DNA of 64,000 bases. Source: Escherichia coli (GTDB taxonomy: Bacteria; Pseudomonadota; Gammaproteobacteria; Enterobacterales; Enterobacteriaceae). The stretch lies in assembly GCF_003334355.1 (NCBI RefSeq), contig NZ_QOWP01000007.1; one strand, given 5' to 3'. The number at the start of each line of letters is the position of its first letter. Positions within the stretch are counted from its first letter, which is position 1. The position numbers and the translations under genes are program-made. This document shows, in pieces, positions 1 through 2,329 of this stretch. A model generated the notes under the pieces. It saw only the letters and a program-made list of their open reading frames with translations, did not search any database and had not been told where the DNA came from.

Positions 1-402
1 ATGCTTCCATCGGAAACGATGATCTGGCAGCCTGAGTTCACAGATAAAACACTCTCCAGGAAACCCGGGGCGGTTCACCCGAAAAGCTTCTTTAAATCTC
101 TGTCGCAAATCATCACGCCAGGCATCTTTATTCAGCCGTCCATATTTCTTTCCCATCCAGGCGTTATCACCAACACGCTCAAGATGCGGAGGGTCTAATA
201 CAACCATCGAAAAAGATGCGTCTGCAAATGATAATGCACGAAAATCTGCGATAATGTCAGGGCTGATAATCAAGCGTCTCCCATTGCGTAATGTGTATCC
301 TTCTTTTCTGATATCGCTGAATATCGCCCGTTTGTCAGACTTATCGAACCAGAACATGCGGCTGCCACAGCACATATCAAGAATGGTTGCCGGTGCACTC
401 AC
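1..402 (-). CDS. Prophage SAM-dependent amino-methyltransferase, N-terminal part only (gene continues past window start)
   Basis: Minus-strand translation from GTG 402 (or ATG 375): MSAPATILDMCCGSRMFWFDK (motif I-like) followed about 48 aa later by VVLDPPH (motif IV-like, DPPY-type). Open to position 1. Not in the ORF track because it is truncated by the window edge. Confidence 0.5.
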   Translation of the reverse strand, partial: MSAPATILDMCCGSRMFWFDKSDKRAIFSDIRKEGYTLRNGRRLIISPDIIADFRALSFADASFSMVVLDPPHLERVGDNAWMGKKYGRLNKDAWRDDLRQRFKEAFRVNRPGFPGECFICELRLPDHRFRWKH

Positions 403-821
403 TGCGCCACGTCCTGAAAATTACCCTGATAGAAAGCCAGTATGCGCTGCATAACTTCGCTCTTCCGGCACTCGCGACAGATTATTTTTAGGCGACTGTC
501 GTAGCGACGTATTTCTCCGTCAGGTGATGACCAGATAAGGTCCGGATCAACCACAGCAGGTTTCTTCACCTTTGCCCTCGAGAGTTTTTTGCGGGCGTTT
601 TGCCAGTCCTTACGCACCTGTTCAGAGGGGAATAACCCGTAGCCGGAGTTGTATACATCGCCACTGGCTACCAGCTCTCTGGCAAGAACGCTCATCAGAT
701 ATCTAGTCGCACCTGTTTTAGCTTCCAGTTGCCGTAACGTCTCACGGCCGCTCTGGCGCACGAGTTCCACCACCTGCCATTTAATTTTTTCCCGCTCTTC
801 TTGTGTAAAAACTTTTGCCAC
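399..821 (-). CDS. Hypothetical prophage protein, 140 aa, between replication gene and methyltransferase
   Basis: Intact ORF with basic, possibly DNA-binding N-terminus; stop overlaps the methyltransferase GTG (GTGA). Function not recognisable from sequence. Confidence 0.5.
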   Translation of the reverse strand: MAKVFTQEEREKIKWQVVELVRQSGRETLRQLEAKTGATRYLMSVLARELVASGDVYNSGYGLFPSEQVRKDWQNARKKLSRAKVKKPAVVDPDLIWSSPDGEIRRYDSRLKIICRECRKSEVMQRILAFYQGNFQDVAQ

Positions 822-861
822 AAGTCCCCCTTAAAATTACCTCATGACCTGAAATCAACAC

Positions 862-1827
862 TTATCCTCTGAAACCAGGCGGAATTTCTGTATCCGGTTC
901 AGAAATATGATTAACACAACGCTGTACAGGTGAACGTCCCAGGCGGATGACCAGTTCGTCCCATTTTTCGCGGAGCTTTGACGGGCTCATGATGTTTTTT
1001 ACCCAGAATGGATCTCGCTGAACCCGACCAAACATTTCGCAAATTTGTCTGTGGCTTCTGCCATCCAGCATCCGCATTGTGCGCACGTCATTGGCCCAGG
1101 CAGTCCAGTTAGGCTCTTTTGGTCGCATGATCTCGCCATCATCACTGGCTGCCTGTTCGTAGAGACCCACGATCCGCCCCCAGATCCACTGCGCACACGC
1201 CAAATCCTCCCTGCTACCCCACTGGCGTTTTTTCGCACTAAACACAACCGCGTCGGAGTTCCGGGTTAAAGAATCCTGTTCAGTCGTCTGCGGGTCCGGT
1301 TGCGAAGCTTCCGGACGAAAAGTGTTTTTATTCTCTGTAGTAATCTCTGTTGTATTCTCTGTAAGATCATCAGGCCATTTTGACCCGATGACATTGGGTC
1401 GTTTTGAACCAATGGAGCGTTTCATTTTGACCTCTTCCATCGTGTCATTTTGACCTGATGGAGCGGCGCATTTTGAACCGATGGATTCGCTCAATTTGCC
1501 ACCATCTAAAAGCTCGCTCCCATAGTTGATCGTGTAGAAATTGGTCATATCGCGCTTTGATTTATTGAGCTTTTCACAACGCAAAAGCCCCAGCGTTTTC
1601 AGACTTGCAAACGCGCGCTTTAACGTTGACTCTGACCAGAATGGGAACTGTTCCAGCCATTGTTCCGTTGTGTTATAAATCCAGCGAACACCATCACATT
1701 CCATGCCGGAGTTGGTATCTCTCAACCAGTAGTGCAGTTGTTGCAAAACAATGGCTTCGTTTAAGCCAATTTTCATTGCCAGCTGCGTGTTTATAACCAG
1801 TGGGCGTTCAGCAAAAAGAAGGCTCAT
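862..1827 (-). CDS. Prophage replication initiator / replisome-organizer-like protein
   Basis: ORF 862..1881; N-terminal HTH-like region (EQWLEQFPFWSESTLKRAFASLKTLGLL), iteron array inside the coding sequence, located at the lambda O position after cro. Start chosen at an internal Met to limit overlap with the upstream ORF; 1881 or 1776 are alternatives. Confidence 0.55.
   Translation of the reverse strand: MSLLFAERPLVINTQLAMKIGLNEAIVLQQLHYWLRDTNSGMECDGVRWIYNTTEQWLEQFPFWSESTLKRAFASLKTLGLLRCEKLNKSKRDMTNFYTINYGSELLDGGKLSESIGSKCAAPSGQNDTMEEVKMKRSIGSKRPNVIGSKWPDDLTENTTEITTENKNTFRPEASQPDPQTTEQDSLTRNSDAVVFSAKKRQWGSREDLACAQWIWGRIVGLYEQAASDDGEIMRPKEPNWTAWANDVRTMRMLDGRSHRQICEMFGRVQRDPFWVKNIMSPSKLREKWDELVIRLGRSPVQRCVNHISEPDTEIPPGFRG
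1374..1500. repeat. Iteron array (5-6 direct repeats, core ATTTTGACC / TTTTGAACC, ~23 bp period) inside the replication gene: putative prophage origin
   Basis: Cores at ~1377, 1401, 1424, 1446, 1469 and a degenerate one at 1492; mirrored at protein level by repeated SIGSK / VIGSK peptides. Confidence 0.55.
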
Positions 1828-2329
1828 AATTCCATCCAGCTTTTTGTTGGTATTGCTGTCGATACGCAAGCTTGAAAGCAATTGCTTTTTCTATAAGTTC
1901 GTCAGTTTCACGATCCACTACGGCAGGATCAGCAAAAAGCAGTCCGGACTCCACCACATCGCCATATTCTTTGTTTAACCCGGCGATCATGCACGTGATG
2001 CTTTTTCCGTCAGTAATTTCACGATACAACCTGAAATCACTAATCCGGATAGCCTCCATAATCGCAGGCACTAGCGCCGTGAACTTTTCACGCTTATCCC
2101 TGGTGTCGATAGCCTTCCAGCGTTCGAATATCTTCACTCGATTAACACCAAGCGCTCGCTGATCAACCGCGCCACCTTCATCTGTGACACGCTGAACATC
2201 GATGTTCGGGCGCTCTTTCAAAGCCCAGAATGCTTCAGTGATTAATATCGTCGCCTGCTCCTGTGTCATTCCTGGTCGACATATCCAGGCATCCAGAGCC
2301 TCACGAGCCTGTTCAGGAGTGATTTTCAT
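1808..2329 (-). CDS. Hypothetical prophage protein, 173 aa, at the cII position downstream of cro-like gene
   Basis: Intact ORF overlapping the cro-like stop by ~16 nt; no motif I can assign. Confidence 0.45.
   Translation of the reverse strand: MKITPEQAREALDAWICRPGMTQEQATILITEAFWALKERPNIDVQRVTDEGGAVDQRALGVNRVKIFERWKAIDTRDKREKFTALVPAIMEAIRISDFRLYREITDGKSITCMIAGLNKEYGDVVESGLLFADPAVVDRETDELIEKAIAFKLAYRQQYQQKAGWNYEPSFC

Follow-up and report, generated by a model that had tools for sequence, protein, structure and literature searches.

A YdaT-family regulator gene and a putative long-form ren gene flank the replication gene in the early operon of a Qin-type Escherichia coli prophage

The function of lambda Ren is known as a phenotype only, namely resistance to Rex exclusion. 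Ren reportedly rescues phenotypes caused by Rex, according to work by Toothman & Herskowitz in 1980 and Thomason & Court in 2022. In a two-hybrid assay, lambda Ren interacts with the Rex proteins (bioRxiv 10.1101/2021.04.19.439022). A second name in use for prophage genes of this region, LygF, goes back to a gene's position in a difference region of Salmonella and says nothing about function (PMC4490851). On the regulatory side, members of the YdaT family have been shown experimentally to be analogues of CII (PMC8630535, PMC9986795, PMC11879457), and homologues of the 173-aa protein described below switch on a reverse promoter for the repressor gene (PMC8630535).

We analysed a 64,000-nt stretch of Escherichia coli DNA (contig NZ_QOWP01000007.1; hereafter the window), in which the original prediction had singled out two prophage ORFs, of 173 and 140 aa, as unassigned and as candidates for an undescribed function. 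That description is wrong: in RefSeq the first is already listed as 'toxin YdaT family protein' and the second as 'DUF977 family protein', and phage records label the first cII and the second LygF or Ren-like. In the following, we propose that the 173-aa protein is a YdaT-family analogue of CII, and the 140-aa protein a long form of Ren with a Ren-like role, in the early operon of a Qin-type prophage; we regard this combined model as probable. Both ORFs were found on the minus strand, starting with ATG (173 aa) and GTG (140 aa), at the positions given in Table 1. They are real conserved genes, not chance ORFs: the 173-aa protein matches PHROG 163 at 2.6e-40 and the 140-aa protein matches PHROG 142 ('Ren-like exclusion protein') at 3.9e-46, both are under purifying selection when compared with diverged copies (dN/dS ~0.08-0.14 overall; 0.08-0.14 for the 173-aa gene and 0.13 for the 140-aa gene), and a strong Shine-Dalgarno sequence, AAGGGGGA, stands ahead of the GTG at 821. 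Among 5426 complete E. coli genomes, about 1350 carry the region. Neither ORF matched an NCBIfam model, even at E <= 10, and a search of PADLOC-DB with both ORFs and the replication protein gave no defence-model match at E <= 0.1.

The gene order is that of a lambdoid early region: dicA (cI) diverges from dicC (cro), which is followed by the 173-aa gene, the replication gene, the 140-aa gene and the methyltransferase gene, so that the replication gene separates the two ORFs and the 173-aa gene lies opposite the cI-type repressor gene. As originally described, the 173-aa ORF occupies the cII position directly after the cro-like gene. The overlap reported for these two genes is real, but it is an overlap of 17 nt between the ORFs (ATG at 2329-2327, dicC stop at 2315-2313) and not a 4-nt stop/start junction. 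The replication gene most likely starts at the ATG at 1827 used by RefSeq and not at the TTG at 1881 of the mechanical ORF list, and from this ATG it overlaps the 173-aa gene by 20 nt. At the other end, the 140-aa ORF does lie between the replication gene and the methyltransferase gene, joined to the latter by the predicted GTGA overlap (TGA at 401-399, GTG at 402-400). The two ORFs are ordinary members of the early rightward operon in this Qin-type lambdoid E. coli prophage.

Table 1. Features of the early region in the window (coordinates of the window; strand and basis as available)
Feature	Position	Strand	Basis
SAM-dependent DNA methyltransferase gene, 5' part, from the GTGA junction past the window edge	1..402	-	PHROG 954 at 2.5e-54; RefSeq
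140-aa gene, DUF977 / 'LygF' / Ren-like	399..821	-	DUF977, PHROG 142, hhalign, AF2 model
Replication initiator gene, O-like / DnaD-like, 321 aa from ATG 1827	862..1827	-	PHROG 391 at 6.3e-91; RefSeq start
Probable origin iterons in the replication gene	1368-1499		Direct repeats of ~23 bp, CATTTTGA[AC]C..GATG
173-aa gene, YdaT-family HTH regulator	1808..2329	-	PF06254, PHROG 163, Foldseek 8bt1
dicC, cro equivalent, opens the rightward early operon	2313..2540	-	NCBIfam NF007282 DicC at 3e-49; RefSeq CDS
Candidate YdaT-box 5'-TTGAAC-AATGAA-AATCAC-3'	2319..2336	-	Comparison across lineages
DicA-operator-like palindromes flanking the P_R-like promoter	2556-2570 and 2606-2620		Consensus matches only
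P_R-like sigma-70 promoter TTGACT-16-AATAAT	2572..2599	-	Consensus match only
dicA, cI-equivalent repressor, divergent transcription	2622..3029	+	NCBIfam NF007257 DicA at 2.7e-67

The 173-aa protein belongs to the YdaT family of helix-turn-helix regulators. Its match to Pfam PF06254 (YdaT_toxin) is at 8.1e-5, and K-12 YdaT falls in the same PHROG 163, at 2.2e-37. A PDB search with the single sequence gave only marginal YdaT matches (E ~0.05), so firmer support was needed from a subfamily profile and a fold search. The profile was built from the 160-173-aa subfamily alone, without any Rac or CP-933P-type sequence, and it matches 8bt1 (7.7e-4) and 3c4r (1.9e-3) across the recognition helix. In the AF2 model of the monomer (pLDDT 84.6), helices are placed at residues 5-16, 23-35, 57-72, 77-97, 99-106, 111-130 and 135-164, giving the N-terminal all-alpha POU-like HTH domain with a long helix behind it that characterises the YdaT family. 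Searched against the PDB with Foldseek, this model has a sole specific match, 8bt1_C YdaT (prob 1.00, 138 aligned columns, TM 0.63 normalised to the target). R70 and W71 do not vary among the 41 homologues compared and correspond to R57 and W58 on recognition helix alpha3 of K-12 YdaT, which are described as required for DNA binding and fold (PMC11879457). The long C-terminal helices of the model may serve oligomerisation; tetramers formed via the C-terminal helix are typical of the YdaT family. The genomic position points the same way: a gene of this type is always found between the cro-type gene and the replication module, whatever the type of repressor, cro or replication gene, and this order is kept in 80 IMG/VR loci as well as in Salmonella, Citrobacter and Enterobacter loci. 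The search of viral contigs for the locus gave only close copies (at least 90% identical), and the divergent loci were retrieved one by one. Homology to lambda CII itself was rejected, as BLASTP gave no alignment and CII belongs to PHROG 191, not 163.

A conserved palindrome at the start codon of the 173-aa gene provides a concrete candidate site for this regulator. The inverted repeat expected for the YdaT family is of the type TTGATT-N6-AATCAA, placed at the cro/ydaT junction. The start codon sits in the spacer of the candidate YdaT-box, and the Rac box known from footprinting, ATGATT-CATGAA-AATCAA, has the same register. In each of the lineages examined (E. coli, Salmonella, Citrobacter, Enterobacter and Rac), a TGA-N12-TCA core overlaps the start codon, the background rate of this core being 3.5e-4 per position, and the outer bases of the palindrome co-vary across the lineages. 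In Enterobacter, the box is displaced by 3 nt relative to the ATG. The window's box is the least palindromic among the copies seen, with three of the six arm positions pairing. A search of the whole window for the canonical YdaT-box gave no enrichment (32 found, 40.8 expected); for the box, only the position-specific comparison across lineages is informative.

We propose the following course of events, by extension from the Rac and CP-933P homologues. From the P_R-like promoter, transcription would run through dicC and the 173-aa gene to the replication gene and the 140-aa gene. After infection or induction, the 173-aa protein would be made from this promoter and would bind the palindrome TTGAAC-N6-AATCAC at its own start codon, then activate a leftward promoter that lies within dicC and is directed into dicA. 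DNA binding and promoter activation by the 173-aa protein, as judged from these homologues, would amount to the part that CII plays in lambda, the establishment of repressor synthesis, but with a protein unrelated to CII. A consensus scan of dicC for such a leftward (reverse, P_RE-like) promoter found none. Activator-dependent promoters usually have no consensus promoter, thus the missing match is weak evidence either way.

The evidence on the 140-aa protein suggests a long-form, remote member of the Ren family. Over its full length (residues 1-136), the protein matches Pfam DUF977 at 2.5e-28, whereas lambda Ren itself has no match to this Pfam family. In PHROG 142, lambda Ren scores 1.6e-41. 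Aligned with hhalign, the 140-aa family and the Ren family match with a probability of 96.3% (E 1.7e-9, 79 columns), and the match spans both the wHTH and a C-terminal motif, N-x-I-C-x-E-C-R-x-S-x-x-M-x-R-[IV]-L-A-F-Y, which the two proteins have in common. The overall link is remote (~25% identity), and over the C-terminal 19 residues the identity to lambda Ren reaches 47% (BLASTP). The AF2 model shows a winged-helix N-terminal domain (about residues 1-83), modelled with confidence, then a disordered linker and a C-terminal region of low confidence. Foldseek searches of this model against the PDB and BFVD gave generic winged-helix matches only, with no informative full-length match, and the C-terminal motif searched against the PDB had no match. 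The best PDB sequence matches of the DUF977 profile were PKZ Z-alpha domains (4e-4); a Z-alpha reading was rejected, as the residues that contact Z-DNA are absent and the wing is without PPxW. Where Z-alpha has its K/N/Y triad in helix alpha3, the DUF977 consensus has E/R/E and the 140-aa protein R/S/R. In E. coli, Salmonella and phage genomes, a gene of this type ends the replication module (DnaC-like, DUF1627, DUF977 in Salmonella; P, ren in lambda), and the IMG/VR loci agree.

The 140-aa protein would be expressed right after the replication gene, like ren in lambda, and by homology it would probably shield early development and replication of the phage from Rex-type exclusion by a resident prophage, with the C-terminal Ren motif probably acting as a protein-interaction element. 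The prophage in the window carries no rex genes, so any such anti-Rex function, which the sequence relationship to Ren suggests, would be directed at other prophages. Against this stands the possibility that the 140-aa protein is a plain winged-helix regulator or replication accessory factor that has only its ancestry in common with Ren, for instance with the origin, or the methyltransferase and nin-like genes further downstream, as its targets. Considering that the confidently modelled winged helix resembles MarR, GntR and ArsR repressors, that the gene stays closely associated with several types of replication module, and that Thomason et al. call lambda ren 'likely involved in DNA replication' (bioRxiv 10.1101/2021.04.19.439022), this alternative carries some weight; we nevertheless think it unlikely, as the best-conserved part of the family is the C-terminal Ren motif and not the recognition helix, and, as a weak point, no operator-like repeat was found for such a regulator in a scan that spanned 1750-3150 only, the gene itself lying at 399..821.

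Keeping the Ren-family assignment of the 140-aa protein and the YdaT-family assignment of the 173-aa protein, one can go a step further. The long form of Ren could serve the lambdoid phages of enterobacteria widely as a counter-defence factor, and the 160-173-aa proteins could be a YdaT subfamily with a box and an oligomer of their own; we find this extended reading rather improbable. The features named for the DUF977 long form are its N-terminal extension, its long linker and the CxxC in its C-terminal motif, and this motif could dock on an abortive-infection sensor (Rex-like or other) or on the phage replication initiator. The 160-173-aa YdaT proteins could recognise yTGAAC-N6-rATCAr in an oligomeric arrangement of a different kind, with a helical hairpin where YdaT has one helix.

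Two further readings fare worse. Early-region slots often hold exclusion, toxin or anti-defence genes, and crystallised YdaT has a shorter alpha2-alpha3 loop and one C-terminal helix fewer than the 173-aa subfamily, so one or both ORFs might have a new function of this kind, unrelated to the family names; we hold this to be very improbable, as both proteins match established families over their full length and lie in family-typical positions, neither has a PADLOC match, and loop length is variable within the YdaT family (PMC9986795). Least credible, with hardly any probability left to it, is that the 173-aa protein and DicC form a toxin-antitoxin pair of the YdaS/YdaT type, with DicC as the antitoxin: RefSeq and Pfam use the toxin name, and over-expression of Rac YdaT leads to filamentation and death (PMC11879457), but the toxin-antitoxin assignment of YdaS/YdaT came from a prediction tool and failed experimentally (PMC8630535), YdaT of CP-933P is not toxic and YdaS and YdaT act as Cro and CII analogues (PMC8630535, PMC9986795), Rac YdaT toxicity is a regulatory side effect via rcsA (PMC11879457), and the fold is that of a DNA-binding HTH (Foldseek), with no PADLOC match. 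For the YdaT family, the toxin-antitoxin reading has already been largely refuted in the literature.

With the two family assignments in place, the original prediction can be judged as a whole. It had seen no catalytic motif in either ORF, which is correct, as both have DNA-binding folds. Its guess of an exclusion or anti-defence function was a fair one for the 140-aa protein, because resistance to Rex exclusion is what defines lambda Ren, the relative that has been characterised; a toxin function fits the 173-aa protein poorly, as YdaT is a CII analogue and not a toxin. The profile-HMM and structure searches that it proposed place both proteins in named families (YdaT; DUF977/Ren). It had named clear homology to CII, P or Ren as what would speak against an undescribed function: for Ren, such homology is essentially in hand through PHROG 142 and hhalign, and for CII there is no homology but a characterised functional analogue, the YdaT family. 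As both ORFs already belong to named families, the finding is an ordinary one; both genes are known, catalogued, common in E. coli and in textbook positions of the lambdoid immunity/replication region. It does show that the database label "toxin" is misleading for the 173-aa protein, a CII-type regulator, and that K-12 YdfX can be read as a truncated stump of this regulator. DUF977/LygF may be read as a long form of Ren, which would link a domain of unknown function to a 45-year-old phenotype.

Compared with known regulators, the 173-aa protein has PF06254, PHROG 163 and the fold in common with YdaT of Rac (K-12 b1358) and CP-933P (PDB 8bt1, also 3c4r), together with the Arg-Trp pair of the recognition helix, the location of the gene between cro and the replication gene, and a related palindrome at its own start codon. 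In contrast, the identity is only ~21-28%, the length is 173 aa against 140-141, the alpha2-alpha3 loop is ~12 residues longer, and the C-terminal half is predicted to contain two long helices where crystallised YdaT has one; the upstream partner is DicC instead of YdaS, and the half-site of the box is TGAAC instead of TGATT. In the K-12 Qin prophage, the counterpart is YdfX (b1568, 96 aa), with 98% identity over residues 1-93 of the 173-aa protein, and dicC and ydfX overlap by the same 17 nt. However, YdfX is a truncated remnant without the C-terminal helices, whereas the 173-aa protein is the full-length form, and K-12 Qin has lost the replication gene and the DUF977 gene, both of which are present in the window prophage. 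Lambda CII occupies the same position as the 173-aa gene, and the 173-aa protein would share its role of activating repressor synthesis from a promoter near the cro/cII junction; CII is a tetrameric HTH activator, and the 173-aa protein is an HTH protein for which oligomerisation is predicted. The two are analogues and not homologues, with no detectable sequence similarity and different PHROGs (191 versus 163).

For the 140-aa protein, the proteins called LygF in Salmonella Enteritidis Sdr I and in phages mEp460, Rac-SA53, 75/02 Stx and POCJ13 are of the same family, with 64-98% identity. Lambda Ren (NP_040633, 96 aa) has PHROG 142, a winged helix and the C-terminal ECRxSxxMxRVLAxY motif in common with it (hhalign 96%), and its gene likewise follows immediately on the replication genes of the P_R operon. 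The 140-aa protein differs from lambda Ren in ~25 extra N-terminal residues and a linker ~30 residues longer, and the CxxC of DUF977 corresponds to FxxC in Ren, where the first Cys is a Phe.

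The original prediction regarded the two ORFs as unassigned, with an undescribed function. This does not hold: both are catalogued members of known families at canonical positions, so the locus itself is of low interest, and the mechanism of the Ren family is a matter of the family, not of the locus. The defence-system models gave no matches. The coordinates of both ORFs and the GTGA junction of the 140-aa ORF with the methyltransferase gene had been read correctly. Both are real genes: their family matches reach E = 1e-40 or better and their dN/dS against diverged copies is 0.08-0.14. 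A compact minus-strand operon, divergent from the plus-strand repressor gene, lies within the window's first 3.1 kb. The 173-aa ORF overlaps dicC by 17 nt and the replication gene by 20 nt, the latter with the RefSeq start (ATG 1827, 321 aa; the mechanical ORF list has TTG 1881, 339 aa), and a strong ribosome-binding site precedes the 140-aa ORF. The methyltransferase gene is open across its 134 visible codons; in the near-identical RefSeq genome (L001 2838-3282), the annotation gives it a frameshift and an internal stop.

Features of the prophage early region, in window coordinates
Feature	Coordinates	Strand	Match
Methyltransferase gene (GTG start at 402, continues beyond window edge)	1-402	-	
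140-aa ORF	399-821	-	PHROG 142, 3.9e-46
O-like replication initiator gene	862-1827	-	PHROG 391, 6.3e-91
Last 20 residues of replication protein	862-921		NF002770, E 0.006
Three 12-bp tandem repeats	1329-1364		
About five direct repeats of about 23 bp (probable iterons)	1368-1499		
173-aa ORF	1808-2329	-	PHROG 163, 2.6e-40
DicC-type Cro gene	2313-2540	-	NCBIfam NF007282, 3e-49
18-mer (candidate YdaT-box)	2336..2319	-	
Palindromes on both sides of dicC promoter	2556-2570, 2606-2620		
DicA-type repressor gene	2622-3029	+	NCBIfam NF007257, 2.7e-67
Palindromes 3' of dicA, before ydfA	3062-3087, 3102-3117		
DicF RNA	4073-4124		Rfam RF00039, 76.7 bits
dicB, ydfD, exonuclease gene	4299-4487, 4484-4675, 4769-7240		

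The 173-aa protein is almost certainly a member of the YdaT family, on sequence and structure together. Its RefSeq entry, WP_000705355.1, bears the name 'toxin YdaT family protein', its Pfam match is YdaT_toxin (PF06254, 8.1e-5), and it shares its PHROG with YdaT of the K-12 Rac prophage (2.2e-37). With 41 homologues as input, AlphaFold2 confidently predicts an all-helical protein (pLDDT 84.6); the sole specific PDB match is 8bt1, the crystal structure of CP-933P YdaT (probability 1.00, 28% identity, 138 columns), and the remaining PDB matches are noise (E > 1). A profile from the 160-173-aa subfamily alone, with Rac- and CP-933P-type sequences left out, matches 8bt1 and the second YdaT entry, 3c4r, across the recognition helix. 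The alignment shows no variation at R70 and W71, the counterparts of K-12 R57 and W58, for which a stabilising effect on DNA binding and on the fold is reported (PMC11879457).

The first predictions made YdaT proteins toxins; later work established them as transcription factors and equivalents of lambda CII. Their sites lie at the ydaS/ydaT junction (TTGATT-N6-AATCAA in CP-933P, ATGATT-N6-AATCAA in Rac), and the repressor gene is driven by a reverse promoter, which YdaT activates (PMC8630535, PMC9986795, PMC11879457). This literature contradicts a toxin function for the 173-aa protein. The best reading is that it is the CII-analogue of the prophage, and a CII-like role is likely. Lambda CII itself is assigned to another family, PHROG 191, and BLASTP found no similarity between the two proteins.

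In the footprinted Rac YdaT-box, the ydaT start codon lies within the spacer; the window carries an 18-mer, TTGAAC-AATGAA-AATCAC, in the identical register. Its core, TGA-N12-TCA, overlaps the start codon in every lineage compared and occurs at 3.5e-4 per position in fetched DNA. The counterparts are GTGAAC-AATGAT-ATTCAC and GTGAAC-AATGAA-AATCAC in other E. coli prophages (with a different upstream gene), CTGAAC-AATGAC-GATCAG in Salmonella and Citrobacter, and TTGAAC-AACCAT-GATCAA in Enterobacter. The outermost bases co-vary across lineages (C..G, T..A, G..C), codon 4 always begins with A while its amino acid differs (T, K, S, N), and the Enterobacter box is shifted by 3 nt relative to the ATG; this shift and these base patterns argue that coding constraint is not the explanation of the conservation. 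The conserved 18-mer thus supports a candidate DNA site. Because the window copy is the weakest palindrome among those compared, the canonical box is no more frequent than chance across the whole window, and a consensus scan found no reverse promoter, we say only that the 173-aa protein may bind at the 18-mer and activate a promoter.

The region is E. coli chromosome, and of 5426 complete E. coli genomes, 1353 carry at least 80% of window positions 300-2650 as a single piece. One flank in a 99.9%-identical genome holds ydfA, ydfB, ydfC, dicB, ydfD, exonuclease, xis and int, then rspB, rspA and ynfA, and the other holds late-gene remains. Because of these flanking genes and the DicF RNA, the prophage is a Qin-type lambdoid one, less decayed than the K-12 copy. 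After DicF come intact dicB, ydfD and an 823-aa RecE-type exonuclease. Related palindromes of the TGTTAGATCAATCTAACA type lie around the dicC promoter and beyond dicA, and are probably the DicA/DicC operators of the rightward and leftward early promoters. Chimeric proteins in public collections join a YdaT-like N-terminal part to DUF977, DUF968, DnaC-like or replication-protein sequence (P0080, P0036, P0047, P0062; P0080, 224 aa on 15 contigs, has Pfam YdaT and DUF977 matches), and seem to have arisen by deletion or frameshift as prophages decayed.

The 140-aa protein is very probably homologous to lambda Ren. It is named 'DUF977 family protein' in RefSeq (WP_001151262.1), has a full-length match to Pfam DUF977 (2.5e-28), and shares its PHROG, 'Ren-like exclusion protein', with lambda Ren (1.6e-41), which itself has no Pfam match. 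Pairwise BLASTP with Ren aligns only a C-terminal stretch of 19 residues (47% identity); profile-profile comparison of the DUF977 and Ren alignments reaches a probability of 96.3% (E 1.7e-9) across 79 columns, which take in both the winged helix and a C-terminal motif, N-x-I-[CF]-x-E-C-R-x-S-x-x-M-x-R-[VI]-L-A-x-Y. In the AF2 model, residues 1-83 form a confidently predicted winged helix; a disordered linker follows, and the helical motif at the C-terminus is of low confidence. Fold searches retrieve only generic MarR/GntR/ArsR-type winged helices, in agreement with a prior report that describes DUF977 as a winged helix (PMC2686095). A Z-alpha identity for this winged helix was tested and discarded. 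DUF977 proteins form a small enterobacterial family (97 clusters at 50% identity), with phage-record names of Ren-like or LygF, the latter positional only, and the gene constantly ends the replication module, of whichever type that is.

Toothman and Herskowitz reportedly defined lambda Ren in 1980 by resistance to Rex exclusion. Ren interacts with Rex proteins by two-hybrid assay (bioRxiv 10.1101/2021.04.19.439022) and is non-essential (PMC10695390). The best reading of the 140-aa protein is the Ren-analogue of the prophage, with an anti-Rex-type role put forward tentatively, at somewhat less than even chances; the main rival is a plain regulatory or replication-accessory role. In Salmonella (L087, L088, 5735-6873), DUF977 comes directly after a DUF1627 protein, which has faint winged-helix (HTH_Crp_2) matches, and ahead of a ParDE pair; in Citrobacter (L089, 5623-7069), DUF1627 is followed by a 135-aa gene without Pfam match in the DUF977 slot.

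K-12 Qin has lost the remainder of the 173-aa gene along with the replication and DUF977 genes; its ydfE is a pseudogene, and the leftward early operon is more complete in the window. By its sequence, K-12 YdfX (uncharacterised, 96 aa; L086, MG1655 1647346-1647636) is a truncated copy of the 173-aa YdaT-family regulator, because it is 98% identical to residues 1-93 and then breaks off. In related prophages, DUF977 is preceded by a DnaC-like gene, whereas no separate P/DnaC-type helicase-loader gene follows the replication gene here; the end of the replication protein weakly matches the primosomal DnaT C-terminus, well below cut-off. Inside the replication gene, the 12-bp repeats precede those of about 23 bp (CATTTTGA[AC]C..GATG), which encode a repeated 'SIGSK' linker and are probably the prophage origin iterons, an arrangement like that of ori-lambda within gene O. 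In lambda, ren comes after P, as the 140-aa gene comes after the replication module.
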